From contig OZ024746.1 in assembly GCA_964016885.1 (NCBI GenBank), forward strand, positions 18,042,001 to 18,106,000: a DNA stretch of 64,000 nucleotides, written 5' to 3'. Shown here piece by piece: positions 28,501 to 61,285 of the stretch. Below the pieces are notes generated by a model. The model was not told where the DNA came from and did not search any database. It worked only from the letters and a program-made list of their open reading frames with translations. A program made the translations under genes and the position numbers. Numbering within the stretch: the first letter of the stretch is position 1; the number at the start of each line of letters is the position of its first letter. Origin of the DNA: Eledone cirrhosa (lineage: Eukaryota).

Positions 28501-31500
28501 CTTGACAGCTTCTGAAAGTTATGACTGATGCTAAGTTTCCTAATTTCTGATGATGTCTCATGGTAATCTCAGATATGGAACATTGTCAAGCTACAACCCA
28601 AACACCAGGCTTATGTTTTAAAGCCATAAAATACTTAATGTCTGATCAATTGTTTACATTATATAAAGCTGATGTTTGAGCCACATTAGAGCACTGCTCA
28701 TATAACTGGCACAGAGCAGTTTGAAGACAAATCGCTATGTTTGATTAACAAGGACTCACCAACATGCTATAATCAATCACTCATAAGATGCACTATTTCT
28801 TGCCGTCTCTTCTATTACTATGACTTCTACTTCTCTGATTTCAAAGGTGGATAAACACCACCACTTCCCATATACCTGCTTCTGCTCATTTTCTCATCCA
28901 TTTGTGTCTTCCTACCATCAAACCCTGAATAAAATAATACTCTACTAAATCATTCTGACTCAGAACTTTGATAGTCTGTTATTCCTTTCACAACCATTTT
29001 TTTTTTTACACCCTCGACACCATGCTACAGAGGTTTCAATTAGACAATGACTTCTTACCGGTCAAAGAAGGCTTGCTTAAAGTCCATGAGTGCTGCCTCT
29101 TCTGAATTAAAACCATAATTCTGTTCAGAACTCTGTAACACTGAATAGTTAAATATTGACATTATCCATTTAACTATTTGTAATTTCTCCATGTCTTTTT
29201 TTCAACAATGATGAATTTATAGAAATAACCAATCACATACCTTATTGATTGTATGAAACAGCAAATGTTCAAATTTATTCAAATTTAATTATTGTTATGA
29301 ATATTTCTTTTCATCTAAAGTTTTGTAAAACTAAATATAGAATTTTTTATGCTTTTTTTATCAAATTAATTTTTCCATTTTCTAGTGACAAACGCCATTT
29401 AAATGGTCTAATTGATTATGGTAACCTGCCAGGAATTCCACCGACATTGCAACCTCCACCTGTGTGTTCAGCCAATGCGGGTCTTTCTCATCCCTCTATG
29501 ACCTGGCACCCTCATTTAGCATTGAAGAATTCATATCAGATAGCTTTAACAGGAACAACTGCACATCAGCATCAACACCAGCAGCAACAGCACCATCACC
29601 ATCATCATCACCATCATCATCCACAGCAGCAGGGTCCTCGTGCAGGAATAACACCTCAGTCTGTAGCTGCCAATAACTCTTATTTTATTTTACCATATAT
29701 ACCCCATGCCCCAAATGTTCTTCCTCCAGTATCATCATGTACTGCTGACAGTTCACCTGTTGGTTCTGACTACTGTAGTCAACCACCAAGCCCTGGGGCT
29801 CCATCAGTGACAAACATCACTGCAGTTCCGGCTTCTTCATCTTCAGTTGCATCAGATGATAGTGATAGAGGTAAAAGCTAATTTTTTACTTACAACTATT
29901 CTTTTATGGAATGTAATTTTTTTGGTTGCTATTTTTACTTATCTGTTCACATTTTTTATGAAATATTTTAAGGTTTTATACTTTGTTAGTTTTTCTTTTT
30001 AAAGTATTAAAGATAGTTTGTATTGTTAATTTGTCAAATGAGAAGCCAATAGTAAAGTTGTGATTAAATTTGTGTTAATATCATTTTTCATCTTCTAAAT
30101 TGGAGCTTTCCAAACTTTTCACATTAGAGACAGTTTTTTTAAATAAAATGTTTTGTGACACATTATCCTTTGTTAGGAACACAAAATTAATGAAATTATA
30201 AAAAACTTTTATTAGATTTTTCAGCTCAGTGGCATATTCTTCACTTCACTCTAGTATAGAGATCATCAGAAGCCTAACTTAATAAACAAACAATTACATA
30301 TGTTATGTGTCATTAGTAACATATAATTAATAGATATTTGTAAAAATTCATCAGATTTAACTTAATTTTACATGTGTTTTAGAAACCACTATTTTAAATG
30401 ATGCATACGTTTGGATGGATTTAGAAATATAATTAAATGTCTCATTATTAAGTTGCTGTTTAGAACATAGCAAAGGTTCTTACATACAATTATGATAGAA
30501 GGTTTTTAGATAAGTATAAACACTTTAAAACAAAGTTAAATATTGTTGAACCAGAAGTGGTTTCAAGTGGTTTAATATCAACAGGCAGGGGTTAGTTTTG
30601 CAGGCCCCATAATTTAAAGCTAAAATGAAGGAATATTCTTGGACATGAAAATGAAGTGTTAAAAAAAGAAAAAAAAAAAAAAAAGAAAATGTTTTCTTAT
30701 ATAAATAATTCTTAGAAATTATTTATCTAAGAAAGAATGTGAAAACATTTGTGTTTTACTTTGAATTTTCATATCCAAGAGTATTTGTATTATGTATTGA
30801 ACTATTTTCATGTCAGTATGAGTTGACTGGAAGGTGTGTTGCCTAGTGGTAATGGTGTTGGACTTAGGATCATAATGTCATGGGTTCGATTCCTGCACTG
30901 GGCTATGTGTTGTGTTCTTGAGCAAAACACATCATTTCACGTTCTCCAGTATACTCATCTGAAAATGAGTACTAGCAATAGTTATGGGTTTAACTCGGCA
31001 ATGGACTGCTTCATGCCACTGAAACTGGGATAAACACTGGCCAGATGAGTCTCTTGAGCTCATCACAGATTTTAGATGAGTTGACTGAGTCTACGAATTG
31101 ATAAGGAAATTGTTTTACAAGTTGCATTAACGTTATTTACTGATTATTAACACTACTCACTCGAGTCTGTATGATTGTTCATATATCTGGTAATCCTGTT
31201 AGATATAACATACCAATCATGAACTCCAAAAATTAAATATGGTTAATCCTGTTGCTGTCATTATTGATGGTACTGGTCCACTCCACTAGTAGCAAATAAG
31301 AAAACTAAAACATCCTATTAAAAGTACAATACCATTCTTTGTGGCAACTGATGGTTGGGTACCTTTTTTTATATCTGGATATAATTATAAATGGACATCC
31401 TGAATTTCCTGCAATCCACCAGACTAGTTAATTTATGTTTGGTGGTTTGGAGGTTACTATGTGGCATTGGATTAAATTTTAAATATTTGCACCTCCATAT

Positions 31501-33536
31501 TATTATAGTTGACAAGTAGTGAGAGTGCTTCTGACTTCATAATGTTTCTAGTAAATTATTATATGGTATGGTATGGTCCTGTAACTCCTCTGCAAGTCTG
31601 ATCACAGCAGATTTCTTCAGAGAAGGATAGCGAGTGAGAGAGAGGAAATGAGAAAGATATAAAGGAAGAATCAACGCATCAAAAGACTGGTGTAGCAGTT
31701 CTGAGAACAATGTGGCTTTGCAGATGATCAATGCAAATTGACAGTGGAAAGGCACTCCTGCTCAAGTTTGAAGAGAACTATTGACCTTCAGGAGAAGCAA
31801 TGACCCCTGATTGTATTCAGCAACCAAAACAAATAAGAAGTACACCAAATCCAATGCTCCTAGGGGTGGCCCTGGTTCTTCTTATTTGCGAGTGTAAACT
31901 TGGTTAGATTAGATAGAAATGGATAATTTGGCAAAGATGCCAGAAAATCGATGTTGTACTTTCAGTAGTTTATGGTCTTCCTGGATGACATTTTATAAAT
32001 ATTTTGTTGTCTTCACATTTGGTTTTCAATCATTGTTCTCAGTTTGTTTTGTTTTCTTTTCAGTCAAGACTAATAAGGAGAGTGAACAGTGCTATGATCA
32101 GGACTATAGGAAAAAAGAACATGTGAAATCCAACTTGAAATTACCACAACATCTCTTAAAATCCACAGCTAGAGGTCAAGTGGATGATCAGACGAAAGGA
32201 AATATACAACAAATTTACCTTGACCATCAACAGTTACCTGTTGCTAACGTAACTGGTGGTTATAACACTGTCTCTGATAATTTATCAACTGTAGCACCAC
32301 ACCGTAATCCTCTGATTCAAGGTCGACCCGCATACAAGGCACAGCCTGCACACACAAATTTAGGAATTAACCCCAAAAATATGATTAACATGCCTCCTGA
32401 TGGCAAATCTACCGCTCCAATTGTGCCTTCAATGTTTAATCACAACTCTGACTTGACTAATTTGAGTACAACTGTTATGAATTCAACTACTCAAACTTCT
32501 GTTTTAGTGACTGCAGACAACACTGCACCGCTTTCTGTCTATGCCAATAATTCAATGGGTGCCTGGACTCGGAGTATGCACCCTGTATGCACACGGACTG
32601 TTGTTGCATGCTCAAATAATACTCTAGTTTCGACAGGCTCTTCAAATTCCAGTCCACCACCAAGACATAATCTAGGCAATATGAAGAATAGTAACATATG
32701 TTCCAATTCAATACCTCAGTCCCCATCTAGTGCTGCTCCTGATTCAACCTGTTCATCCTCATCTGACCAAGCTGCTGGCTTGGCCACACCGAACTTCCTT
32801 GCACAATGCTCAAACCAAAGTAGTGTCATTACGAATACCATCGTTTATTCATCTCAGACTTTGAACTCAAGTTCTCCGAGCCAAGTTTCTACAGGCCGGT
32901 CAGGAATGTGCAAAACATGTGGCTGTGATGGCTACCACCAATTCAGTGTGATTTCCTCTCCTGTGGCTCCACCAGCTAATAATATCCCTCCTAACCATTG
33001 GCCATCCTTTGCAGGGAACATGGGCTACATGCCACAAAATTCTAATGGTTTGATACCAGTTCACTACCCAATGCACTTGGTTAGTGCGATCCCTCCTGAT
33101 CATGTCTATAGCAACCCGACTAACATAAATTTGGTACATATGAACTCTTCAAATCAAGCAGCTGTATCATCATCATGTTCCTCTACATCGTCATCGTGTA
33201 TGCTGAGCCAGATCTGTAACTATGGATCATTTAGTCATCATGCCACACCACCACAACTGCCGTTTGCAATGATTAACAAACACTACCGGTCATGTTTTAA
33301 TTGTGGAGGATCAGATCATGTTGCCAGTGATTGTAAAGAAACATCTATGGAAGCTATGACAGGTAACATATTTTATTTCAAATATTCCTTGTTTTTTTCA
33401 CCATTTATTTATTCATTTAATTAAATTTAATTTTTTAGTTTCAACTTCTGTAAACTGTTTTTAATGTCTTGTTTGTATTTTATATTTTTCAGGCCAGTAT
33501 CGGTTGAATTTCAAGAGCAAAACTGCGGCAGACTGA
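12775..33536 (+). CDS. ZCCHC14: ZCCHC14/ZCCHC2-family zinc-knuckle protein, 5'-partial; join(12775-12846,19079-19142,19913-19973,21710-21819,23688-23750,24747-24825,25974-26187,27835-27884,29386-29870,32064-33362,33493-33536)
   Basis: Eleven AG/GT-bounded exons chain with consistent phase into 2541 nt (846 aa + stop). PX-like segment (VSWSNGETTEVYKT...LEKLPPKFLECDHLVKFF), CKTCGC motif, and C-terminal CFNCGGSDHVASDCKETSM...GQYRLNF, which resembles the vertebrate ZCCHC14/2 terminus. Confidence 0.82.
14521..14685. mobile_element. piggyBac-type MITE (family 1)
   Basis: TTAA|CCCTTTGGCATTTA ... TAAATGCTAAAGGG|TTAA: terminal inverted repeats with a TTAA target. Confidence 0.75.
16225..16440 (+). 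mobile_element. degraded DNA-transposon terminus (Tc1-mariner/pogo-like), partly triplicated
   Basis: TACCGTAAATACTCATATAAGCTGAGAAATATGTGACAAAA at ~16337, partial copies at ~16228 and ~16290, and an inverted relative at ~49810-49848. Confidence 0.45.
16444..18466. repeat. ~2-kb minisatellite, ~65 units of 29/32 bp (TTTGGTGGKGAATATTA[TTA]CACTGGTTTCAH)
   Basis: Directly visible tandem array with no unique spacers. Confidence 0.97.
18681..18871. mobile_element. piggyBac-type MITE (family 1), opposite orientation
   Basis: CTAACCTTTTAGCATTTA ... TAAATGCTAATGGGTTAA, with internal GAGAGAATTCTGGC shared with the other copies. Confidence 0.7.
19079..19142 (+). CDS. ZCCHC14: ZCCHC14-like exon (FARTFDDVNVYKQDRRTPYLL)
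   Basis: Polypyrimidine tract + cag acceptor, gtaag donor, phase 0-1. Confidence 0.7.
19196..19294. repeat. 31-bp tandem repeat x3
   Basis: TATAATATTGAGCTGYTRATATCATT repeated three times. Confidence 0.85.
19913..19973 (+). CDS. ZCCHC14: ZCCHC14-like exon (NFHKEEHVDDGNLQNISHYMG)
   Basis: tttttatag acceptor, gtaagt donor, phase 1-2. Confidence 0.72.
21710..21819 (+). CDS. ZCCHC14: ZCCHC14-like exon (QLEKLPPKFLECDHLVKFF...), end of PX-like domain
   Basis: aacag acceptor, gtttgt donor, phase 2-1. Confidence 0.75.
23225..23510 (+). mobile_element. tRNA-derived SINE with CORE-like central motif
   Basis: A box TGGCTTAGTGG, B-box-like GGTTTGATTCC, then TGTTCTTGAACAAAACACTT. Confidence 0.75.
23688..23750 (+). 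CDS. ZCCHC14: ZCCHC14-like exon (ANEQPVISPYNQKSFNTASPS)
   Basis: ttccag acceptor, gtaaat donor, phase 1-1. Confidence 0.7.
24012..24134. repeat. 30-bp tandem repeat x4
   Basis: ATGGAGTGGTGTGACAGCAGTAGAGKGCCT units. Confidence 0.85.
24431..24620. mobile_element. piggyBac-type MITE (family 2)
   Basis: CCCTTTTAATATCAAACCACCTGAAACC ... GAAAGGG|TTAA, with relatives at ~14250-14505 and ~30440-30595. Confidence 0.55.
24747..24825 (+). CDS. ZCCHC14: ZCCHC14-like exon (GEISNRQHHQSTYYNPHHSQLSSNNY)
   Basis: tttttcag acceptor, gtaaat donor, phase 1-2. Confidence 0.7.
25974..26187 (+). CDS. ZCCHC14: ZCCHC14-like Ser/Pro-rich exon
   Basis: Same frame as ORF 25993-26271. ttgcag acceptor, gtaagt donor, phase 2-0. 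Confidence 0.8.
26200..26425 (-). mobile_element. degraded RTE-type LINE 3' fragment
   Basis: The minus strand encodes the RRPRGRPRPR motif typical of RTE C-termini. Confidence 0.5.
26880..27210 (-). mobile_element. tRNA-derived SINE
   Basis: On the minus strand: TGGCTTGGTTG A box, GAGTTCGATTCC B box, TGTGTCCTTGAGCAAGACACT. Confidence 0.75.
27481..27688. mobile_element. piggyBac-type MITE (family 1)
   Basis: TTAACCCTTTACCATTTA ... TAAATGCTAAAGGGTTAA. Confidence 0.75.
27835..27884 (+). CDS. ZCCHC14: ZCCHC14-like exon (SKDEEKLYYQEIPKNSR)
   Basis: ttacag acceptor, gtgagt donor, phase 0-2. Confidence 0.72.
28200..28512 (+). mobile_element. degraded RTE LINE C-terminal fragment
   Basis: LHWYGHVMHMEDDSC...WDDVIRADLTKL is homologous to copies A-D. 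Confidence 0.75.
29386..29870 (+). CDS. ZCCHC14: ZCCHC14-like exon with poly-Gln/His tract
   Basis: Same frame as ORF 29249-29881. tctag acceptor, gtaaaa donor, phase 2-1. Confidence 0.85.
30830..31075 (+). mobile_element. tRNA-derived SINE (same family as 23225)
   Basis: TTGCCTAGTGG, GGTTCGATTCC, TGTTCTTGAGCAAAACAC. Confidence 0.72.
32064..33362 (+). CDS. ZCCHC14: ZCCHC14-like large exon with CCHC zinc knuckle (33293-33334)
   Basis: Within the 501-aa ORF. CX2CX4HX4C motif, ttttcag acceptor, gtaac donor. Confidence 0.9.
33493..33536 (+). CDS. ZCCHC14: ZCCHC14-like terminal coding exon (GQYRLNFKSKTAAD*)
   Basis: tttttcag acceptor, phase 1, TGA at 33534-33536. Confidence 0.8.
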
Positions 33537-45169: not shown

Positions 45170-45229
45170 TGAAAAAGCAAAAACAAAAACAAAAAACACA
45201 AAGAAAATAACTAACAAGACAGTTTTATT
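45170..45229 (-). terminator. candidate NOB1 polyadenylation signal
   Basis: AATAAA at 45229-45224 overlaps the stop codon and is followed by a GU/U-rich tract. Confidence 0.55.
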
Positions 45230-45501
45230 TATCTTCTTTTCTTTTTCGAAAATTTCCTAACTCCTTCATTGGGGTTTCTTCTATTCCATGGTTTAACCTC
45301 CTGCCCTTTAATTCCCAGCTGAGCAGCTCGACTAGTTAAGTCATGAATTCGAAAAGGAGACTGGCCAACAACATAGTTTTCATCAAAGACATTTAATCTC
45401 TGCAAAGCTTTCTTAGTTGCTCTCTGTTGTGGTACTCTTTGGTCTTCAAATAGGATAGGATTGTTAGAGTGTTTCCCACCTTGAGGAAGTGGAAGTGAAT
45501 A
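45229..45501 (-). CDS. NOB1: NOB1 exon 8 (terminal)
   Basis: [21 protein letters not shown]...SPF...RRNPN...KKKRR*. Confidence 0.93.
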   Translation of the reverse strand, partial: YSLPLPQGGKHSNNPILFEDQRVPQQRATKKALQRLNVFDENYVVGQSPFRIHDLTSRAAQLGIKGQEVKPWNRRNPNEGVRKFSKKKRR

Positions 45502-48500
45502 CTGAAAAAAAAAAATTAAGTTATAAAAATCAGCAAGAACAAGACTGAGGAAATATATGCTGTAGAAATTTTGTATAAAAAAAAATAAGTAAGTCTAATG
45601 ATGGATCCTCCACAGTTATTTGACATTCGCAATAAATTTATTTCATAGACATGTGTACTCTTAATCCATCCAACAGGGTTACAAGTAATTTCTGTTGACA
45701 CAATTTTAATGACCATCTCAATAAAATATAAACAAATAAATATTCTTGATGTTTGAAAAAAAAGTAAATCCACATCCAGACATGGTAAAACATTCCTGGA
45801 GAAGCAGAGTAGATGATTTTCATCCATGTTTTATAAAGAAACAATGTCCCAGACCTGAACTGACTTCTCATCTTGTTAGTGTTAAAAGTTATAAGAGTGT
45901 AACTTACTTTAAGACCACGTCGATTCAGAAGACGCCTGGAACTAAAATGGTATTGAACACTTCCATCATCTTTAACTGTCATAGAAATTTTTCTTAATGT
46001 TTTGTTTCCACACCAAGGACAAAACATTTTTGTAAGAACTGTACAGATTCTACAAGAACAATATAAGGAGGTGATTAGGAGTATATGCAGTGAAGTGCCA
46101 TTTTAAATGTTAAAAAAAAAAAAAATCTCATATTTTCTATGTTGCAAGAGTGAAGATGACAGCTGATATGCCACCAAAGATGTAGAATACTAGTTTCAAT
46201 TAGGAAGATATTTTTTGTGGTCAGTAGTTAAAGAATGATTTATATTAAAAAAAAAGAAATAAAAGTATTTACTGTTTAGTAAGGGAATGAAGGGCAGTGA
46301 CCATGGACCGTTTTCATGGCCTCTGAGACTGGTAAGAGAAAGGGAGTCAGTGAGACCAGAGATCTGGTCTGAAATTTTGCAACAATGTGTACTTCATTAA
46401 AGGTATCCAAGAGTGAGGAGTGTTAATAACAGGTGATTGGTTAAGTTTACTACACAAGTAGGCCACTGACAGATTTGAAGTGGGAATGCAAAGAGCTGGA
46501 ACTACTGCAAGGTATCTTGTCTGAATTTGCCACTAACAATTATACCAATCCACTACCTTCGACTGGTTATCAGCTCTGAAAAGATGAAAGCCAAATTTCA
46601 CCAGAGATTTGGAACAAATACAGCTAGGTATTCTCCAGGATAAGGGTAATGACATAAGATTTCAGTTATATAGTGGAGTAGAATGAGACCATCTGACATA
46701 CAAGAGCACAAGTGATGTGAATTATCTTTGACTAACAACCAAAACCAGATCATAGACTTGGGTCACTAACAACTTATTCTTTGCTCTATGATAAGATAAT
46801 TGTTTCTACTTTTTGGCACAAGGCCAGCAATTACCCCAGTGTATTACTGGTACTTTATTTTATCGACCCTGTAAGGATGAAAGGCAAAGTTAACCTCGGC
46901 AGGATTTGAACTGTCCGTAAAGGGACGTAACTGTGCTGCAAAGCATGGCGTCCGACCCTCTACTGATACTGCCAATCCACAACTAAGATAATGTTTCTGA
47001 TTAAGGCCAACAATATTTGGCGAGAGAGGAAAGTCAATTAAACCGACCCCTGTGCCTTACTGGTACTTAATTTTATCGGCTACATAAGGACATAAGGCAA
47101 AGTTAACTTTGGTGACATTTGAACTCAGAATGTAAAGAAACAACTATGCTGCAAAGCATGGTGTCCGATGCTCTATTGATTCTAGGTTAATCATCATCAT
47201 CAGGTTTAGCGTCCGTGTTCCACGCTTGCATGGGTTTGGACGGGGGTTTTCCCACTTGAGGCAAGAGTGGTTGTCTTGCTCGCATAGGACTGTCTGGCGG
47301 GTTTTCTACAGTTGGATGCCCTTCCTAACACCAACCACATTTACAGTGTGGGGCTGGGAGGTTTTTACCGTGTTGCCTACACGGCCACATTACAGCGTGG
47401 ACTGTCTGGCGGGTTTTCTACAGCTGGATGCCCTTCCTAACACCAACCACATTTACAGTGTGGGGCTGGGAGGTTTTTACCGTGTTGCCTACACGGCCAC
47501 ATTTACAGCGTGGACTGTGTGTTTTTTGTCGTGACACCTACAATAAATTTTTCATAATTGTAAAACTTACTTCATACAAGCTGAACACCTTAGTACATAA
47601 CTCTTGGCTTGTTTGATGAGAAGACCTTCGACTGAGAGAACATTCAAACCCATTTGGATAAGGACATTCTGAAAAATAAAAATCTCAAAATGTACACAAG
47701 ATATATACACACACATTAACATTCATACTAACCCTTATGTAAGCACTAGATATATGCACACATTAACATACTAGCCTCTACATAAACATATTAACATTCA
47801 TACTGACCCCTACATAAACACTATGTATACAAGATGAGTAGAAAGTTTTTGTGTAATTTTGTATCGACACAGGCATGAACTTTTGTAACCACGTGGTTCT
47901 AGGTTCAGTTACACTGTGGGACACCTTAGGCAGTGTGCCATCCATTACAGCATATAATATATCGACCAATGAAATTTGGTAGATGAAAACTGTGTAGAAG
48001 CCTGTTGTGTGTGTGTATATCTATGTACATACACACACATATATATTGATGATATATATATATTATATATATGTATGTGTGTGTTTGTGTTCCATAACCT
48101 AGTAGTTCAACAAAAAGAGATCAATAAAATAAGAATATAAAGAGATTTTAAAGCCTTAGATTAAACACTGTGAGAAAGAGAGAGATGAAATAAAGCCATT
48201 ATAGATAAATGTAATAACCACATTTTAATCATGAAAGTGGTTGAGCAAGTTTTGAGGAAGTTATTAATAACCATAACAAAGAAACATGTGGAGCTACAAG
48301 TTAATAAGAAAAAATAAAAACCTTTTGTTTAGCTATTGTTACACTTTCCACCTATACATATATTTAAATAAAATAACCTGTTAACATCACAGAATTGATA
48401 TATCTCAGATAGTTAATAAGATTTACTTGCTCAAGATTGTAGAGATAAACTGTATAACAGTTTCTAAAAGGAAACTCTTAAATATATTTTCTTATTGCCA

Positions 48501-49185
48501 TTATCATCATTTAATGCCTGGTCTCTTGATAGCAAGTGTTGGATAGGTTATCATAGACGAAGTCAGTACTTAACCAGAGATATTGACCACAGATGGGCTA
48601 GGACCTCATGTCACTTACACATGTTCCCACACACACTCACTCTTTCTTTTTCTATCCTCTTAGATGATTCATGTTTCATTTTTAGCATGACCTCTATGGC
48701 CAGATACCTTTCCTAATACCAATCACTTGGTTCATAGCTAAAAGTTAAAGCCTTACTTGAGCCTAGACGCTCATCAGGCAGGAGCTTATCCCGGTTTCAT
48801 GTGGTGTACAAGGCTTCCGACTGTGTTGTTGTTTGTTTACTTTTTGCATATATATATCATCATTTCATTTTACATCCGCTTTTCCCTGCTTGCAAGGGTG
48901 GGACAGGAACTGATTCTGGCTTGATTTCTACAGCTGGATGCCCTTCCTAACACCAACCTCATTTACAGTGAGTGCTGGGTGCTTTTTTGCCGTGGCACCT
49001 CCACGACCACTTTGCAGTGGAATGATATGGACCCCAGTCCCTATCATCTCATTTCTACAGCTGAATAAACTGGAGCAATGTGAAATAAAGTGTCTTGCTC
49101 AAGGAAACAACACAGAAAAAGTCTGAGAACTGAACTCACAACCTTTCGATTGCAAGGCCAATGCTCTAACCACTAAGCCATGTGC

Positions 49186-49255
<70 letters not shown>

Positions 49256-49301
49256 TCATCATCATCATCATTTCATTTTACGTCCGCTTTTTCCCTGCTT
49301 G

Positions 49302-49333
<32 letters not shown>

Positions 49334-52300
49334 TTATGTGGTTGTAAGTGTATGTCAGTGTCTATGATCATAAATGTGTGTTTCTGTGTATATGTCAATG
49401 TTTCAGTGTATTTATAAAACTACGTTTGTAAGTTTCTGTTTAATGTAGCAGTGTTTCAATGGACAAGATATCATTATCATCATCGTTTAACGTCCACTTT
49501 CCATGCTAGCATATACATATATGTATGTGCGCAAGTTCATAACTAGTGTATTGTTCCCACCTCAATTTGTTTCCTCCTTAAATTTCATATTTTGCAGATA
49601 TATTTGTCAAATATGTGCATTATAAATATGATGACAAATGTTTCGTCATTTAAAATGTTATAATTTTCAGTCACAGAAATTACCAGAAGTATCCGTATGT
49701 GTCATTCCAGATATTTTGGTGTATTTTTTACACAAATGTTGAAGCTGGGGAAAATTGCCAAAATATTAACTTTAAAAATAAGCCAACACCTCGTTATAAC
49801 ATCAATATTTTTTGTCACATATTTCTCATCTTATACACAATTATGGTAACTCTTAAAGAATAGTGATAAGAAAACTAAATCTAAGAGATAGATTGATAGA
49901 GGGAGAAATTTAAGAATGATAAGTATCAACATAGATTAAAAGAGTGACAAACCTGCATTGCAAAATCTGATGTTAAACAACCCACTGTTACACTAACAGG
50001 GTCTATTTTCTCAGGTTCCATTTTCTGTTTTAGTGAACCAATGTTCTCTGGTGTAATCCACCCCTCATCATCATCATCTTCCTCCTCATAATCATCAATT
50101 TCCTCCTCCTCACCACTCTCATCATCTCTACCACATTCACCATCATCATCGTCATCATTAGAAACTGGCTCAATGCATTGTTCAGAAAGTATGTTTCCAT
50201 GTCCTAATCTTTTAGTTGATATTAAATCATTTTCAGACACATTCAAATTTTTCTCCTCATCTTGCTGTTCCTGAAAAAAAAGTATAAATATATATATATA
50301 TATATATATGAAGGCACATGGCTTAGTGGTTAGAGCATTGGCCTTGCAATCGAATGGTTGTGAGTTCAATTCTCAGACTGGGTGATGTGTTGTTTCCTTG
50401 AGCAAGACACTTTATTTCCCATTGCTCCAGTTTACTCAGCTGTAGAAGTGGTCGTGGAGGTGCCACGGCAAAAAAGCACCCAGCATTCACTGTAAATGAG
50501 GTTGGTGTTAGGAAGGGCATCCAGCTGTAGAAATCAAGCCAGAATCAGTTCCTAGCCCACCCTTGCAAGCAGGGAAAAGCGGACGTAAAGTGATGATGAT
50601 GATATATATATATACATACATACTTACATATATACGTGTGTGTGTCCATGTGTCCAACTCATGCCAGTCTCACTGTAGCGTCCACTTTCAACAGACTATC
50701 TTCTCATGCATTCTCCCCATTCACCAGTCTCTAATAATTGTTTCTACTTTTAGCACAAGGCCAGCAATTATCCAGTGCATCGACCCCGTAAGGATGAAAG
50801 GCAAAGTTAACCTTGGCGGGATTTGAACTCAGTCCGTAAAGGGACGTAACTATGCTGCAAAGCACTTCCATGCTACTTTCTTTTCAGCATCAGTGAAGGC
50901 AAATGCACCATTATTATTATCATCATCATCATCACCGTTTTCTTCCATGCTAGCATGGGTTAGACAGGTTGTCCTGTTGTGGGCAGTGTCTGGTCGGTTG
51001 ACCATGCCTTGCTCATAGAGGAACTGATTTTGGCTTGATTTCTACAGCTGAACGCCCTTCGTAACACCAACTTCATTTACAGTGAGTGCTGGGTGTTTTT
51101 CGTGGCCTACACATCCACTTTACAGTGTGGGCTGGGTGCTTTTTTGCCATGGCACCTCCACGACCACCTTGCAGTGGGAGGGTGTGGGGGCATATTGTCT
51201 ATATGCTTCAGCTTGTACCCATGGGAGGTCGGATACTCTGTATTACTGCGTGACGCCAGAGGTCACGGTCGTGTGTCATCACCTTTGAGAGGTGTAATTG
51301 GGTAAGGTCGGCTTTTATCACCTCATCCCAGGTCTTCTTGGGTTTCCCCACTCCGCGGTTTCCATTTACTTCTAGTGCTCTGCACCTTTTTATGCAGCTG
51401 TCATCCTTCATACGCATCACATGTCCATACCAACGCAACCGCCTCTCCTGCACATAGCATTTGATTCCTCTTATGCTCAGTCTCTCTCTCAATTCATTTA
51501 TGCTTTGCCGTTCGCGTATATTACTATTACACATCCATCGGAGCACGCAGGCTTCGTTTCTTTCTAATCTACGTAAGTCTTCCACAGACAGCGCCCAGGT
51601 CTCACTACCATGTAACATTGCTGTTCGGATACATGCATCATACAGTCTGCCTTTCATTTTGAGGGAGAAGCCGTTTGCAGCTAGCAGTGGTAGTAGTTCC
51701 CTGAACTTCTTCCATCTCGTTCTTACCCTAGTTATTGTACTTTCTGAACACCCACCTCCGCTGCTAATTCGGTCACCTAGGTAGCAGAAGCTGTCTACTG
51801 TTTCTACAGAGCCCTCCCCGAGATTGGTGGTACTTGTTTCCTGTGGCTGTTTGCTGTCCCAGCACAGCTGCTACATGTGAACCCTACATTCTTAATTAAG
51901 CTTCGTGAGATTCCGCTATATCTCTTGTGTACCCATTGTTTGCATTTGGGGCAGAGAATGGAGTTCCTACCTACACCTTTCCTACATACTGAGCAAGGCT
52001 ATTTCCCTGAGGTGATCTGGGTTCTGTTTTCTCGTCTACTTACAAGGACATTAGTCTTTGTCGTGTTGACTTTGAGACCCTTTCTTTCTAGTCCCTGCTT
52101 CCAAGTTTGGAATTTCTTCTCTAGTTCTACCATAGATTCAGCTATAAGTGTGAGGTCATCAGCATACAGGAGTTCCCATAGGCATCCGGTCTTATACTCT
52201 TCCGTTATTGCCTGCAGGACTATGATGAACAGGAGAGGGCTAAGAACAGAGCCCTGCTGGACACCAACCTGTACGCTAAATTCCTCGCTATACTCATTGC

Positions 52301-54133
52301 TAATCCTAACTTTGCTGACTGCTCCCCTATACATGGCTTGTACAGCTTTCACAAGCCATTAATCTACTCCTAGTTTTCTAAGAGTCCACCAGATTGCAGC
52401 ACGTGGAACTCTGTCAAAGGCTTTCTCGAGATCGATGAATGCCAGGTAGAGTGGCTTACTTTTAGCTAGATGCTTTTCCTGTAACTGCCTCACAAGGAAG
52501 AGGGCATCAGTGGGGCCTCTTCCTGGTACAAACCCAAATTGCATCTCATCTAGTTTCATCCGGTCCCTAATCAACTGTGCTGTAACTCTTTCTGTTACTT
52601 TTATGACCTGGTCCATCAGCTTCATACCTCTATAGTTTCCTCTATCTAGTGCATCACCTTTACCTTTGTAGCAGTTGACAATGATGCTACTGCACCAATC
52701 TTTTGGTATGACACCTTCTAGTATTACCTGGTTAACAATACGTGTGGTTATAGTGTGACCTACAGACCCAGATGCCTTCAGCATCTCGGCAGCTATACCC
52801 AATGGACCGGTTGCCTTCCCCATCTTCATATCTTTGATTGCCTTACTTACTACGCTGCTGCTGACTTGTACTGCTGGCCCCTCTATAGGGTCTACTTGGG
52901 GTAGGGTCTCTTCTTCCCATGCATTCTCCTCATTTAGTAATCTATCTCGGACACATTTTCCCCACAACAATGTTTCAATTTTTCTAGACACACTGCCTCA
53001 CAATCCCGACCACTCCAGGTTGTAAAACATGAAAAATTTATTTTTTTCCACTTCTCTCTTTGCAAAATATACTCACCGCCTAGCTTCTTGGTAATGTTCT
53101 CTGATACCCCAATTCTGCCAGTCTTTCTTGGCCTTAATTGTTTTATTCACCCCCAAGTCACCCTTATTCTCCCTGGAACCCTGCTCTGTATCCTTAAGCA
53201 GATTATCTTTCAGTATCTTCCACTGCTCCTGTACATTGCATGTCTCTATTTCTTCTTCCTTACTGTTAAAAGCATCAAGCAAGATACTTCTAAATGTGTT
53301 ACTGGTTGAGGTTCTCTCAACTTCCATTGTACTTGGAAGGAATTTTTGATATGTTAGTTTTAATGGCTTGAACTTATTTGGAGTTTCATCAGTTTTTGTC
53401 AAAAAAAATGAATAATGTAGACAAAAATAAAAACAGAGTCAGTTTTGTTTTAGCCACCCTGTATGTTATTAATTAGAATCCCCATTTTGGATTATAGCTT
53501 GCATGATCAAGTGTTCAAATCCTAGTAAAGCTATTATAAGTAGCCATGAAGTGAGGCCTATTACACTGCTGGCAAAGTGGTCTGATATTGAATTCAAACT
53601 GGTGTGGTTAGCACTAAAACAGAATATCTTGTTGTACAAAGACTTTTCTGACAATTTTTAAGTAAATAGCAAAGGAAAACACAACAAAACAACAACTATA
53701 CCTGTTTAGATTCTAAATAAAAACCAGCAATATCGGTTACTTTTCCAAGTAGATTCCTAGAATTGACCCAGTTGACCTAGAAATAAAAAAAGGGAAATAT
53801 AAATGTATTGCTTTAAATAGTTGTTATAAGATATCCTCTCATCTATAGTATTATCTGTGAGGTAACTAAGTTGACATGGACCATAAACCAGCAAAAATTA
53901 TAAAAAATTGAAAATGGCTATAGTACTTAAGTTATTTTATGAAAAATTAAACTGATGCAGGGTGTAATACAATATCTTAGTTCTGAGATGGCAAGGTGTA
54001 GAAGTCTTAGCTGTAAAGTGGAAAGAAGTTGTTTTGGCTTTAAGATGGTAAGGATTGTGCCACAGAGAGGAACAGAACCCAGACTCATGCAGTTGCAAAG
54101 AATACTTCTTAACCACAGATATGCCAGCATCAC

Positions 54134-54170
<37 letters not shown>

Positions 54171-57100
54171 GGTTGTGTTGGTGACACAATAAAAAGCACC
54201 CAGTTCATATTGTAAGTGTGGTTGGAGTTCAGAAGTGCTTCCAACCATAGAAACTAAGCCAGAATCAGTTCTGTATGCGCAAGACATGCTGACCTGATCT
54301 GACTTGTCTCACAATAGGACAATTCATCTGACACATGCTAGCGTGGAAAATGGACGTTAAACAATGATGATGATGATATATATCTATTAAATGTAAACAG
54401 TAATTTAAAAAAAAAAAAACTTACTTTCTTTACTGGCTCTGTTTTAATATGAGCCTCACCATTATGTTCTTTCTCTAGTTGGTAAGTTAAAGCAATGAGA
54501 CGGATATCTACAGCAGATAAACTACGGTAATCACCAGTTTTCTTAGAAAATTCAGTGACTGTATGAATAAAGAAAAAACAAATCTGTCAATTTGGAAAGA
54601 TTAAAAACATGTGGTGGAAAAAAAACTATACAAAGCAATACTAGTTTAATTTAAAGTTTCAGCTAAACTTTTATTTTGATGTTGTTGGTGTGGCTGTGTG
54701 GTTGAGTGTTTTGTTTTGTAACCATATGGTTTCAGAATTGATCCCACTGCATGGTATTTTGGGCAAGTGTATTCTACTATAGTTTGGAGCTGACCAATGC
54801 TTTAGGAGTAAAAATGGTAGATGTAAATAGAAACCTGTTTTGTGTGTGTTTGTCTAAGCATGGCATAACTTCACATTTTTGACACTGTGTGATGCTTCTT
54901 TGCCCTGCATAAACAACATGGCATACAGCTCAGTGGTTTGATGTGTGAAGATCAATACTTTAATTAAAAAGTAAATGTTAGCACCAGGAATGGCAAACAA
55001 TGTTGGAAGACTTTGGTGATGGTGGGTACATGGTTCTATGCCATTAAGAAAATGTAAAACATTTGCTATAATTTATGTTTGTGTGCTTGTATTTGAGAGA
55101 GTGTATGTGTGTGCGTAACTCTGATTGAGGTGTGTGTATGACTGTGTTTGAGAGAAAGCAAGATAGATAGATAGATAGAGATTGTTTTGCATATCTAGAC
55201 ATTTGCATGAATTATTTTGGAGTTCCAGAATTACTTGAGAGTAAGACACTAACTAAGTGGTATTTAACCATTTTGATACCAAACAGCTTGAAAGTGTTCC
55301 TATTTCTGCTAATTCTAAGGTGTTTATATTTATCTCAGTCCATCTCTCCAGATTTTAATACAACAGACTTCTTCCAGAGAAGGATAGAGAGAATGAGAAA
55401 GAAATATAGAAGAATTGCCTCCAGTATTAGACTAGTACTTTTTTTTTGTCGACCTCAAAGGATGAAAGGCAAAGTTGACTTCAGGATTTGAACTCAGAGA
55501 GCAAAGAACCAGATCGAATAATGCAAAGCACTCTCTCCAATGTTCTAACAACTCAGCCAATTCGTTGCCTTATAATAAGAAGGGTTAAATATAAGAAATT
55601 TTGGTGATTGCAATAAAATCATCTCTTGAGTAAATAAAAAACGCACCTATCTAAAGAAACTGGAAATAAGATAAGGAAAAAAATAAGATAAAAACCAATC
55701 TACCTGTATGAATAGCTTCATTGTTTGGTTCTCGAAATAATATTTCATAAGGTAAAACCTGCAGTCTTTCTCTGGTGTTTTTATCTAACACTTCAGAAAC
55801 AACTTCTTTGATAGTGTAAATATTTTCTCCAATATGCTGGATAAATAAAATAGAATACAAATATTTTAGTTCTGAAGAAAAGTAATATAAACTGAACCAT
55901 TTTAAAAACAAAACATTAGAAAGTAAATTTGGTTGGCAGAGACTGAATGGAATCCCTGTGATTCAGCTATCTAATTTAAGATGGTAAGAGTTGTCAGTCC
56001 CTTGGCTTAATGGTTTAAAGCACCTAGCTGGTACCCAGGAGATATGGAGTTTGATTCCTCATAGCAACTTCTTTTTCCATCTTTAATCCTTTAGCATTTA
56101 AACCGGCCAGAATTCTCTCACCTCTTTCTGTTCAAACCAGCTGTAACTGGCTGCTCATACTGATATTAAGGTATTATATCAAAATTTCATAGATTCAATA
56201 TTGTGAGGTAAAGCTTTTACCATGAAAATACAATAGTAAAAATATAGAGTAATGTAAATGCTAAAGGGTTCAGGGTCTTCAGCCTACTATATAGCATCTC
56301 TCTGCACAAGCACTCCATTCTTTATATTATATATATGCATTTGTTTATGCTCTGTGTAAACAGAGGTCCCATTGCTTAGCAGTTAGACATGTTAAGATTC
56401 ACAGCTTATTTTTTAAAAAAGCCAAGTGATAGCTGACACACAAGCAGAAAGGTGAAATGATTTTTTAAGGTCTCTATGCTCCTTTGCTTACTATTTAACC
56501 CAGGAGCCTTAAACTCAAGGACTCAAAAGAGCCATTATGTCCTGTGAGAGGGCCACAGGAAACCAAAAGTGAGATCGGGGTGGAGTTCCACCAGCTATAA
56601 TGCTAATCTACAATACAGCTGATAGACTGCTATTTATTTCCATCAAAATGAATCTGCATATGGAATATGAATTACTACAAAATCTAAGCGAGCAAATATT
56701 CCTTAATTCTATTTTCATTTTTTATAAATTTCGATTTTTCCATTTTATTGTATTTCATGGGTAAATCGCAATAGTATGGATGGGGCAAGCAGCAAAGTAC
56801 CAAGTTTTAAGAAAATGTTAGTCACAAGGTACTGCATGTTTGAGACCCCTCCACGGTCTTCCTTCATTCACATCTCTTATCTTTTTCCTTTCCCACTCAA
56901 CTCATTCTAGCATGGAAAAACGGATGCAAGCACACTCTGCAGTGTACTGCTTGGGGTCACTTGCTCACTTCAAGGCTACCCCTGTGACCACTCCCACTCC
57001 TGATACCTACATCCTCGTCCAACCATGCACGGAAATACAGATGACCCCCACCTCATATCACCCACTCTCTTTTAGGTTACCTTTCTCTGTCATCTCCTCC

Positions 57101-57770
57101 TTTGGCAAGCAACATGCGGCCTGATCATGCCACCATTCACAACCCTGACTGAGGACGACACCATTATACCAAGAACAGGAGCTTGATGTACATCGCTATA
57201 AATTTTTATTAAATTCACTGTCGACCCAGCCTTTTGTTTACAGTACCCTTATCTATGGTCCTACTCATTTTCATGAACCATTCATCCATCCATAACTTTC
57301 TCAGTGTCCACCATGCTGAATATTGGATTTTCAAATGTTTTTTTACAGATTAACAAGTGCTACTCCTTTGCTAATTACTTTCGATATACAAATACCTGGC
57401 GCATTTACTTAGAATGTAATTTCTAAACACATTTAGATAAAGAAAATGTTTTCTGAATAAATCGGTTTCACTTCTCTTAAATGAAATGAAAGTTTTAATC
57501 ATCAAACGGTTCGCAACACTTCGCAAAAATATTCTAGTTTTGGTGCTAGCTATTAGTTACACAGCATGCAAGTAGTGACATACACGTGGAACAAATCAGC
57601 CAACAAAAAACATTTTAAACGTATGTAAATGAACTTCAGACATTTTATTATGTAATTTCATGAAATATTAAAAAACAACGACTCACTTCTATAGGAGCAT
57701 TCTTGATAAAAGCTGCAGAGTCAACAATAACAAACTTCACTTTCTTGCGACTTAATTGATCAGACGCCAT
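45229..57770 (-). CDS. NOB1: RNA-binding protein NOB1 (18S rRNA 3'-end PIN endonuclease), complete, 418 aa; complement(join(45229-45501,45908-46049,47571-47668,49953-50270,53702-53776,54425-54558,55704-55836,57687-57770))
   Basis: Eight GT-AG exons total 1257 nt in phase. PIN motifs [17 protein letters not shown] and [24 protein letters not shown]; acidic region + GWITPEN; [17 protein letters not shown]; Zn ribbon LRCSAC...[10 protein letters not shown]; [11 protein letters not shown]...RRNPN. Confidence 0.96.
45908..46049 (-). CDS. NOB1: NOB1 exon 7
   Basis: [23 protein letters not shown]...RGLK. Confidence 0.93.
46795..47185 (-). mobile_element. two adjacent tRNA-derived SINEs of a second family (CCTTTCATCCTT...GGTCGATAAAATAAGTACCAG domain)
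   Basis: Further copies at ~50735-50865, ~55430-55570 and ~62500-62715. B-box-like GTTCAAATCC on the minus strand. Confidence 0.7.
47190..47540 (-). mobile_element. RTE-tail-related element with a ~113-bp internal tandem duplication
   Basis: (CAT)n tail; GGATGCCCTTCCTAACACCAACC block present twice. Confidence 0.7.
47571..47668 (-). CDS. NOB1: NOB1 exon 6
   Basis: [32 protein letters not shown], 98 nt. Confidence 0.93.
48857..49188 (-). mobile_element. tRNA-head/RTE-tail SINE
   Basis: Reverse complement of 50310-50603, with (GAT)n tail. Confidence 0.85.
49953..50270 (-). CDS. NOB1: NOB1 exon 5 (acidic region, WITPEN, TSDFAMQ)
   Basis: Within ORF 49926-50369, 318 nt, phase 0-0. Confidence 0.93.
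50310..50603 (+). mobile_element. tRNA-head/RTE-tail SINE
   Basis: TGGCTTAGTGG A box, GAGTTCAATTC B box, CCTTGAGCAAGACACTT, then sequence matching the RTE 3' UTR and (GAT)n. Confidence 0.87.
50919..52945 (-). mobile_element. 5'-truncated RTE LINE (copy D) in NOB1 intron 4
   Basis: ORFs 52359-52991, 51999-52352 and 51208-51657 contain [25 protein letters not shown] and RRLRWYGHV, broken by stops. Same 3' UTR as copy A. An older fragment lies at ~53070-53310. Confidence 0.93.
53702..53776 (-). CDS. NOB1: NOB1 exon 4
   Basis: [25 protein letters not shown], tttctag/gtatag boundaries. Confidence 0.8.
54425..54558 (-). CDS. NOB1: NOB1 exon 3
   Basis: [30 protein letters not shown]. Confidence 0.93.
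55704..55836 (-). CDS. NOB1: NOB1 exon 2
   Basis: [37 protein letters not shown], 133 nt. Confidence 0.92.
56083..56272. mobile_element. piggyBac-type MITE (family 1)
   Basis: TTAATCCTTTAGCATTTA ... TAAATGCTAAAGGGTTCA. Confidence 0.72.
57687..57770 (-). CDS. NOB1: NOB1 exon 1 ([28 protein letters not shown])
   Basis: AAAATGGCG start context, gtgagt donor. Confidence 0.9.
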
Positions 57771-58090
57771 TTTCGAGATCTCGTGTAAACTTTAAAGACG
57801 GACGTAATTTTATTCCGGAACACGTACAACTCAAACCGGATATGACGTCAACAACCCTCCGCCTCTAACTTTTTAACCTCAACTTTTTGTTAACACATTT
57901 CAATTAAAGATTCTTCCCGTTAGGTAAAGAAAAAATACCCCAACAAATGTGGAATTCCTAAGAGGGATTATAATTAATATTTACAATAGTTAAAATTATA
58001 GAATTAGTATAATATTTATTAACCGTGTGAAAAAAACAGCCAAACTATTTCCTTTGAAAGTAATGACGTAATTAATCACATGACCGTCAG
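57765..58090. promoter_or_regulatory. NOB1 promoter region
   Basis: Local CpG enrichment. YY1-like CGCCATTTT at the ATG, TTCCGGAA (ETS-like) at 57813-57820, TGACGTCA (CRE) at 57843-57850, TCACATGAC (E-box) at 58076-58084. Confidence 0.6.
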
Positions 58091-59505: not shown

Positions 59506-59589
<84 letters not shown>

Positions 59590-59796
59590 CGAAGACGCGT
59601 GGCTGAGTGGTTAGAGAATTGTATTCGTAATCGTAAGGTTGTGAGTTCGATTCCCTAACCGGGCGATGCGTTATGTCCTTGAGCAAGACACTTTATTTTA
59701 CGTTGCTCCTTCTATCTCGAGTTGCGATAGATAATATTAGCAATTGGAAAGACCAATGGAAACATTGTTTCCTCAATCCGATTTGACGAAAGTTGA

Positions 59797-59851
59797 CATA
59801 TACCAGTGGTTTCTTGAAAGCAAACAAATGTTGCTTTCAATCATCAGAATG
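59797..59851 (-). ncRNA. minimal type I hammerhead ribozyme motif A
   Basis: CAUU-CUGAUGA-UUGAAAGCAA(CAUUUGU)UUGCUUUCAA-GAAA-CCACUGG-UA/UAUG: complete core, 10-bp stem II, GUA cleavage triplet, weak stem I. Confidence 0.6.
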
Positions 59852-59921
59852 AAAGTTGACATATATATATAATGTCAACTTTCGTCTGACTGCTGTCGAT
59901 ATATATATATATATATATATA

Positions 59922-60079
59922 TAGAAGTGGTTACACAACAGTTAGTTCACCATACCGAGAACAATTGTTTCACCTTAGCGGATCCTCAGCTCGTAAATTT
60001 AAGATTACGAGCTGAGGATCCGCTAAGGTGAAACAATTGTTCTCGGTATGGTGAACTAACTGTTGTGTAACCACTTCTA
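59922..60079. repeat. perfect 75-bp inverted repeat with 8-nt loop
   Basis: 59922-59996 is the exact reverse complement of 60005-60079. Confidence 0.97.
60008..60045 (+). ncRNA. minimal type I hammerhead ribozyme motif B (mirror copy on - strand at 59956-59993)
   Basis: CGAG-CUGAGGA-U-CC(GCUAA)GG-U-GAAA-CAAUUG-UU/CUCG: 4-bp stem I and palindromic stem III ACAAUUGU, as in Penelope-type minimal hammerheads. Confidence 0.55.
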
Positions 60080-61100
60080 CCTAACTCGTCCCATGGACTG
60101 AGTGCTCTACCACTACGGATATTACCTTCCAGCGTTCTACCACTGTGGAGAAGTTCAAGTATCTTGGGGCGGTGTTCATGAGTGATGGAAGGCTGGAGAC
60201 TGAATTAATATATATATATATCGATAGTCATACGAAAGTTGACATATATATAATGTCAACTTTCGTCTGACTGTCGATATCGATAGTCATACGAAAGTTG
60301 ACATATGTCAACTTTCGTCAAATCGGACCGAGGAAACAACGTTTCCATTGGTCTTTCCAGTTGCTAATATTATCTATCGCAATAGAAGGAGCAGCGTGAA
60401 ATAAAGTGTCCTGCTCAAGGACATAACGCATATATATATAGATATATGCAGATATATATATACAAATAATGAATCAAAACATCAAATATGTTTAGAATTT
60501 TGTGTTTCTCAATAAGCAAGCTCAATAGATTTCATCTATATACATATATCTTTTCATTTCATTTGGTTACATATATAAGTGGGCGTGAAACACTACTCGA
60601 TCAGGGATATCTGGAGATATGGTTAATATTAAACGGTGAAACCTTAGGTAGAGCATTTGTTCCGTGTATGAACATAAATAATGTATACACACATATACAC
60701 ACGCACATATTTATATAACGTTGAACCTTTATTTTTCTGTTGATCATGTATTTTTTTAACGATCACTTGTGTTTGGTAATATTGTTGGAGATTCAATAGT
60801 CTTAATTACATAATATGAAATTCTGTAAGATTGCTTTTTAGAAAAAATAACTTAAAGACTTAAACAAAAAGGCAACTAAATTTATTATATTTTACTGAAT
60901 CTAAGGATTGTGGATGTCTGTAGTTGGTTCGCTGTTGAGATGGTTAAAATTTCTGGCATCCAGATTTAATGTGGGTAAGCAAGGTTTGCCTATTACGATT
61001 CCTCATACCAAAAATGCACGCACACAATATTATATATATATATAACGTATACATATATATGAGTGTATATTAAAATATGTAAGTTAAATTCTTTATATTT

Positions 61101-61285
61101 GTCTCTGATGAGCTATTCTTACTGGAATGAACTAATTGTTGTTAGTCTAGCGAAATGCGCGTAAGTTTGTTAAATGTTTTAATAATAATAATCCTTTCTA
61201 AACTTTCGATTGAGCCCTGCCCTTCAATGTTTCTAATTTCTCATTCTTTCTTCTGATGAAGGACTAGCATCTGAAATGTTAACTC
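61101..61285 (+). mobile_element. probable Penelope-like element relic(s) with two degenerate hammerhead motifs
   Basis: CTGATGA-GCTA...TAGC-GAAA-TGCGCGTA (61105-61163) and CTGATGA-AGGA...TCT-GAAATGTTA (61253-61281). Confidence 0.45.

Follow-up and report, generated by a model that had tools for sequence, protein, structure and literature searches.

On balance, we favor the reading that a 48-nt segment in the tail of a SINE of Eledone cirrhosa is a fragment of type I hammerhead RNA of the Penelope or retrozyme kind, reverse-transcribed into the AT-rich hairpin tail with duplication of 15 bp and predicted to be inactive. The motif carried by this segment is likely of hammerhead ancestry, judging from its sequence, since it lies far above chance expectation and has the architecture of Penelope minimal hammerheads (a long helix II, a palindromic helix III, H = A and a helix I that is short or absent). 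Coordinates (Table 1) count from the first base of the window, by which we mean the whole 64,000-nt stretch that was analyzed (contig OZ024746.1, positions 18,042,001–18,106,000).

Table 1. Coordinates of the hammerhead motif, its host SINE and neighboring features in the window
Feature	Position	Strand	Description
tRNA-type SINE	59589–59787	+	Head, central domain and subfamily body (59712–59787); T4 run at 59696–59699; starts after a microsatellite
Direct repeat, copy 1	59788–59802	+	Also the end of the SINE body; same junction in the paralog
U16.1-A17	59801–59802	−	Predicted cut 3′ of 59801; both bases inside the direct repeat
Helix III	59802–59810	−	9 nt, self-complementary; monomer 3 bp with 3-nt loop; dimer 8 bp with central C.C
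48-nt segment without counterpart in the paralog	59803–59850	−	3 nt of helix I 5′ strand, core box, helix II, GAAA, helix III to G16.2
G12-A13-A14-A15.1	59810–59813	−	From sequence; G12 = 59813
Helix II and loop	59814–59840	−	10 Watson–Crick pairs (59840–59831 with 59823–59814), 7-nt loop
Hammerhead core box, C3–A9	59841–59847	−	From sequence; CUGAUGA at 59847–59841, C3 = 59847
Direct repeat, copy 2	59851–59865	+	Left arm of a 12-bp hairpin with (AT)n center
Hairpin tail unit	59851–59898	+	Outer arm predicted to sequester the core box in minus-strand RNA
Perfect 75-bp inverted repeat, 8-nt spacer	59922–60079		Between two SINE copies
5′-truncated inverted SINE paralog	60208–60431	−	Without the 48-nt segment; ~500 bp from the motif-bearing SINE
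29-nt insert of the paralog	between 60218–60247 and 60277–60306		Between 30-bp direct repeats, at the same AT center
Second hammerhead-like motif	61098–61166	+	G10.1-C11.1, branched helix II, palindromic helix III, 2-bp helix I; ~0.1 per window by chance
Third, decayed minimal-hammerhead-like motif	61246–61283	+	Weak alone; ~1.2 per window by chance at 2 Watson–Crick bp

The minus strand carries a complete hammerhead core

A preliminary description had placed a hammerhead motif on the minus strand at 59797–59851. We checked each letter and coordinate of that description, and the full core (CUGAUGA...GAAA...U-A, with H = A) lies where it had been placed. All defining nucleotides of a type I core are present (C3-U4-G5-A6-N7-G8-A9 and G12-A13-A14); the cleavage triplet, GUA at 59803–59801, is of the NUH form, with A15.1-U16.1 as a pair and A at position 17. 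Helix II had been called perfect, and its 10 pairs are indeed all Watson–Crick; it opens with U10.1-A11.1, and no extra base separates A9 from position 10.1. Helix I has U.U at position 2.1/1.1, with three further pairs beyond it. These two departures, U.U closing stem I and U-A as the first pair of stem II, had been named as the weak points of the motif, and both are real. Helix III had been thought near-palindromic and suited to dimers. In a predicted co-fold, two copies of the motif do pair through it, forming 8 bp around C.C at −8.2 kcal/mol; the window contains no second copy.

The motif is far above chance expectation

We scored the window with a descriptor made up of the core, helix II, GAAA, helix III and UH, taking as background 600 order-4 Markov simulations of the 53,156 non-microsatellite bases. 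None of the 600 simulations gave a helix II with at least 10 Watson–Crick pairs; there was one instance with at least eight pairs and three with at least 10 when G-U pairs were allowed. The window itself has 28 core-box sites and four core-plus-GAAA motifs with at least two helix II pairs, among which only the motif at 59.8 kb exceeds four pairs. Folding energy alone is unremarkable, with a z-score of only −1.6 for the 55-mer (16 of 200 shuffles folded equally well).

No homologue of the motif was found in the window, or in GTDB, phage and plasmid records and predicted proteins, which counts against the fragment reading. Within the window, the best candidate for a second copy of the 48-nt segment scored 30, compared with 24–33 for ten shuffles. 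In GTDB, neither the helix II cassette nor the SINE-body end, each searched as an exact pattern, gave a hit, and blastn against phage and plasmid records returned no match. Two reading frames across the junction, compared with predicted proteins in search of spurious ORFs of sister copies, yielded nothing; these are weak negatives. The Rfam hammerhead models did not match the motif at the gathering threshold or at E-values up to 10 (96-nt stretch; four Rfam scans). They also missed two more typical-looking motifs at 61.1–61.3 kb, which makes them a weak test for minimal forms. The miRNA matches returned by the same scans are the perfect palindromes of the region.

These blank searches would suit a chance mimic, in which fold-back or template switching created a hairpin that core boxes flank by accident, without ribozyme ancestry. 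Such an origin would also suit the U10.1-A11.1 pair, the U.U at helix I and the many windows that a genome-wide scan covers. Six of the 11 perfect hairpins of the window fall within 500 bp, at 59.8–60.3 kb, a palindrome hot spot that counts against the significance of the motif. Helix II, moreover, is closer to the local tail hairpin than are random hairpins (post hoc P = 0.013), which speaks for a mimic and against a ribozyme fragment. Even given 11 non-microsatellite hairpins of at least 10 bp, however, a perfect hairpin flanked by both core boxes is expected only ~1e-4 times per window, in line with its absence from the simulations. The segment holding the core is not a patchwork of local DNA either: its longest exact match to a local template is 7 nt, and its coverage is no better than that of 2000 random 48-mers (P = 0.34, 0.47 and 1.0 for k = 6, 7 and 8), which rules that origin out. 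We also rejected homology of the segment's end to the tail unit, the similarity being nonsignificant (P = 0.16–0.45). Both ends of the segment, finally, coincide with the limits of the core, and we regard a chance mimic as unlikely.

When helix II (59814–59840) is set beside the SINE tail hairpin at 60291–60318, the two have their outer arms and loop pattern in common, with three bases swapped between the arms.

The core occupies a segment missing from a SINE paralog

The motif resides in the tail of a SINE, antisense to the SINE head and past the T4 run. This head shares 69%–80% identity with five others in the window and contains what we take to be an A-box-like motif (59600–59610) and a B-box-like motif (59645–59654); the central domain presumably resembles the CORE type. 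By alignment, the tRNA-like head and central domain are common to eight copies in the window, and the subfamily body to three. One of these three, the inverted paralog, is identical to the motif-bearing copy at 122 of 129 positions, with one 7-nt gap, and runs from the SINE body into the same repeat unit and on into the fold-back without 59803–59850. The third subfamily copy, at 25.6 kb, has already diverged ahead of the repeat and says nothing about the segment.

Read on the minus strand, the 48 nt lacking from the paralog extend from 3 nt before C3 to G16.2, and include the core only that far. The downstream repeat begins with the remaining U16.1 and A17 and supplies all of the helix I 3′ strand; from the other repeat comes 59851, the outermost base of the helix I 5′ strand. 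One end of the segment thus lies within 2 nt of the predicted scissile bond. The motif had been described as bracketed by 15-bp direct repeats. The repeats are exact (59788–59802 and 59851–59865 are identical and extendable on neither side), but the motif does not lie wholly between them, with U16.1, A17 and the helix I 3′ strand inside one and 59851 inside the other.

The repeats had been proposed to represent either a target duplication or a monomer boundary. The 12-mer core of the repeat occurs seven times, always within 59788–60316, and five occurrences flank no hammerhead; the paralog, in addition, has the same junction without the 48-nt segment. These observations favor the duplication over the monomer boundary, and the direct repeat is most simply a target duplication. 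The locus presents both direct repeats and, in the paralog, an empty site, as a retro-insertion should. A single paralog nonetheless fits insertion into one copy and deletion between repeats in the other alike, which counts against the fragment reading.

Predicted folds argue against activity in place

Nearest-neighbor predictions gave a stable helix II, with a mean pair probability of 0.88–0.89 in all four contexts. Helix III was predicted with a pair probability of 0.24–0.61, and helix I essentially failed to close (0.009 for the motif alone, 0.0 in each of three longer contexts). The active fold is predicted to lie 5.0 kcal/mol uphill for the motif alone and 11.3–12.1 kcal/mol uphill in context; in the longer contexts, the core box or the 3′ repeat is taken up by an upstream hairpin arm. 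Alternative registers were considered and rejected. A type III register with the tail hairpin as helix I (GUC cut at 59888) and a type I register with a GUC cut at 59795 would be 10.9–18.1 kcal/mol uphill, and a long helix I built from the inverted pair of 15-nt arms does appear in one fold, but it is shifted relative to the core, with no active junction left.

Because helix I is predicted not to form and the active fold is 11–12 kcal/mol uphill in context, the copy is predicted to be inactive at this locus. The motif most likely does nothing, since it runs antisense to the SINE promoter and lacks a partner copy, and since a neighboring hairpin is predicted to pair with its core box. Of the original hammerhead reading, the likely origin stands, on the strength of the chance expectation and a Penelope-like architecture, but the predicted folds do not support a working ribozyme at the locus.

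Comparison with known hammerhead elements

Minimal hammerheads are described in the pLTRs of metazoan Penelope elements, where they number thousands per genome and are mostly solitary (Cervera and De la Pena 2014; PMC4209133). According to that study, they have a long helix II, a short helix I and a palindromic helix III, G10.1-C11.1 and an extra base after A9 are typical, the monomer tested did not cleave, and dimers cleaved weakly. Our motif resembles them in its full core, its long helix II, its palindromic helix III able to dimerize, its U-rich 5′ flank, its solitary occurrence and its AT-rich setting. H = A and U10.1-A11.1 have precedents in Figure S3 of the same paper, read by eye: U10.1-A11.1 occurs in two of 56 rows, and a Saccoglossus row combines H = A with an 8-bp helix II, a long palindromic helix III and no extra base. 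Natural hammerhead cores have been reported even with U.U at 10.1/11.1 (PMC3088659).

The motif differs from Penelope hammerheads in lacking G10.1-C11.1 and the extra base after A9, both of which count against a Penelope fragment, and in lacking a paired 2.1-1.1, which is present in all rows of that figure examined; its 10-bp helix II is also longer than in the rows examined by eye. It sits in a SINE tail between 15-bp repeats, with no pLTR or Penelope ORF found nearby. A Pfam search of 37 frames from 57.6–63.9 kb (45 frames in all) detected no Penelope RT or GIY-YIG domain, which counts against the Penelope reading, although most published motifs are solitary as well; in the full set of 45 frames, RVT_1 was found only in a LINE at 11–12 kb.

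Non-LTR retrozymes are a second point of comparison (PMC7229834; bioRxiv 10.64898/2026.07.22.740005). As described there, they share with our motif a type I hammerhead with a weak palindromic helix III in a non-coding, repeat-bounded unit, but they need tandem units, whereas the locus has one core, no tandem array, a 63-nt spacing, and a repeat common to ribozyme-free paralogs. We asked how far a native mini-retrozyme could account for the locus: the unit would be the 63 nt at 59788–59850, with its own 4-bp helix I in which one base has mutated, the 15-bp repeat would be a terminal redundancy, and the paralog would have lost the unit by deletion. The three helix I pairs beyond U.U would then be genuine, the unit boundary would coincide with the cut site as observed, dimer pairing through helix III is predicted to be feasible, and retrozyme consensus lengths down to 51 bp have been reported (bioRxiv 10.64898/2026.07.22.740005). 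Typical animal retrozyme units, however, are 150–450 bp long (PMC7229834), and the locus amounts to only 1.24 units. The repeat unit, moreover, is found five more times without a core and in both copies runs on from the SINE body without a break, and helix I is predicted not to form, so that we find this account quite improbable. Built like a Penelope-type type I hammerhead, the motif lacks both a closed helix I and tandem units, and it is not classed as a functional member.

Hammerheads are also known from SINE-like repeats. The Sm-alpha element of Schistosoma is a tRNA-derived repeat of this sort that bears a hammerhead. As there, our hammerhead motif belongs to a tRNA-derived repeat; here, in contrast, it is antisense to the Pol III head, lies past the T4 run and is missing from sister copies. 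The host SINE in turn shares its tRNA-like head, A- and B-box-like motifs and central domain with octopus CORE-type SINEs such as OR1, an assignment that we presume from resemblance, and it differs from OR1 in that its subfamily has its own body and hairpin tail. OR1 itself is named as a CORE-SINE in the octopus (PMC4824008).

A proposed route of insertion into the SINE tail

The AT center of the hairpin tail is likely a repeated target of insertion with duplication, since the motif-bearing copy and the paralog each have an insert flanked by direct repeats there. Under the reading that we favor, a donor element elsewhere in the octopod genome would carry an intact ribozyme that acts as a dimer through its self-complementary helix III. 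An endonuclease or a break would open the (TA)n center of the tail hairpin, and an RNA whose end lies at the scissile bond, or no more than 2 nt from it, would anneal to this center via a 2-nt TA microhomology. Target-primed reverse transcription would then stop after ~50 nt, 3 nt beyond C3, and a second nick 13–15 nt away would yield a duplication of 13–15 bp. Because such an insert would end at the scissile site, the donor's helix I 3′ strand would be missing, and the apparent U.U mismatch would simply be target DNA. The preference of a Penelope endonuclease for AT-rich DNA (PMC11167929), the Penelope-like content of the O. vulgaris genome and the two further hammerhead-like motifs of the window count in favor of this reading, and PLE insertions are described as often carrying inverted pieces and favoring microsatellites (PMC8557442). 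A point against the fragment reading is that the three helix I pairs next to U.U would have arisen by coincidence, for which we estimate a chance of ~3% from base frequencies.

The same ribozyme donor might instead have been captured as DNA during break repair at the extruded AT hairpin, without an RNA intermediate, TA microhomology helping and the end at the cut site being coincidental. The locus offers a parallel: the first 24 nt of the paralog's 29-nt insert are found exactly at 59867, in the tail of the motif-bearing copy, a match to local DNA by an insert that lies at the same center and between direct repeats, and the perfect 75-bp fold-back adjoins. The 48-nt segment, on the other hand, has no local template, and nothing would lead a random DNA fragment to stop within 2 nt of the scissile bond and to start 3 nt before C3. 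Capture as DNA strikes us as distinctly unlikely.

As a tentative possibility, the insert may be a fossil of cleavage in vivo, namely the 5′ product of a Penelope-type hammerhead with an unusual U10.1-A11.1 and a 10-bp helix II, retro-inserted at a (TA)n target with priming from the cleaved 3′ end. For the Anolis Poseidon element, the only Penelope studied in vitro, reverse transcription is reported to start internally on the RNA and to proceed without any need for cleavage, and none of the RNA-seq reads stops at the cut site (PMC11167929); these data count against the favored route, and a cleavage product in particular, and fit capture as DNA.

Neighboring features of the window

Rich in A and T, the animal DNA of the window is crowded with (TA)n and (CA)n arrays. 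Between the two SINE copies, the 75-bp inverted repeat, which looks like a recent fold-back, is followed by a short RT-like frame (60085–60210) between (TA)n runs. The peptide at 60.1–60.2 kb, which we take to be RT-like, matched neither Pfam nor the LINE ORF of the window. The inverted SINE copies around the palindrome (59666–60431) could form a long dsRNA ~2 kb upstream of the coding start of NOB1, a possible substrate for A-to-I editing. The first coding exon of NOB1 likely starts at 57770, ~2 kb downstream of the motif and on the same strand.

The two other hammerhead-like motifs are 148 nt apart, have U-rich flanks and lie 1.3–1.4 kb from the main motif. The one at 61098–61166, whose helix III duplex is predicted at −9.7 kcal/mol, is likely a separate Penelope-type remnant; the one at 61246–61283 looks CpG-decayed. 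Together they are likely the remnant of a Penelope pLTR.

Elsewhere, several related LINE copies (5574–12445 and 50918–52638) encode RT and PHD-like domains and are broken by long (TA)n runs, with a 439-aa open frame at 11094–12413. Two convergent genes were recognized, one ZCCHC2-like (exons at 25954–33424, plus strand) and one NOB1-like (exons at 45229–57791, minus strand). Pfam matches in the window comprised RVT_1, zf-CCHC, PIN_6 and Zn_ribbon_NOB1, and the zinc-knuckle exon shares 86% identity with a ZCCHC2-like protein of Argonauta hians and 85% with one of Octopus vulgaris, which marks the host as an octopod, apparently neither of these two species. A minisatellite at 16444–18466 (65 copies of ~32-bp units) contains an ARAGORN tRNA-SeC call at 18185–18265 that is likely spurious.

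Implications for Penelope-type hammerheads in octopods

Penelope-like elements make up 6.83% of the O. vulgaris genome, in 190 families, according to a supplement that holds no sequences matching the repeat and does not mention ribozymes (PMC13282606). The giant squid genome has 235 annotated hammerhead loci (PMC6962438). In the literature searched, which was mostly open-access, we came across neither a Penelope hammerhead family from an octopod nor inserts that stop at the cut site.

The motif is likely a single dead copy of a known kind, unusual only in that the segment ends at the predicted cut site. By itself such a copy matters little, Penelope-type hammerheads numbering thousands in animal genomes (PMC4209133). 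Whether these ribozymes cleave in vivo, and what role cleavage has in transposition, has been described as an open question (PMC8557442; PMC11167929). If truncated octopod copies commonly end at position 17, they would provide a cheap, genome-only test of that question. A class of inserts ending there would, if the fossil reading is true, mean that weakly active ribozymes cut in vivo and that their cut ends serve as templates.
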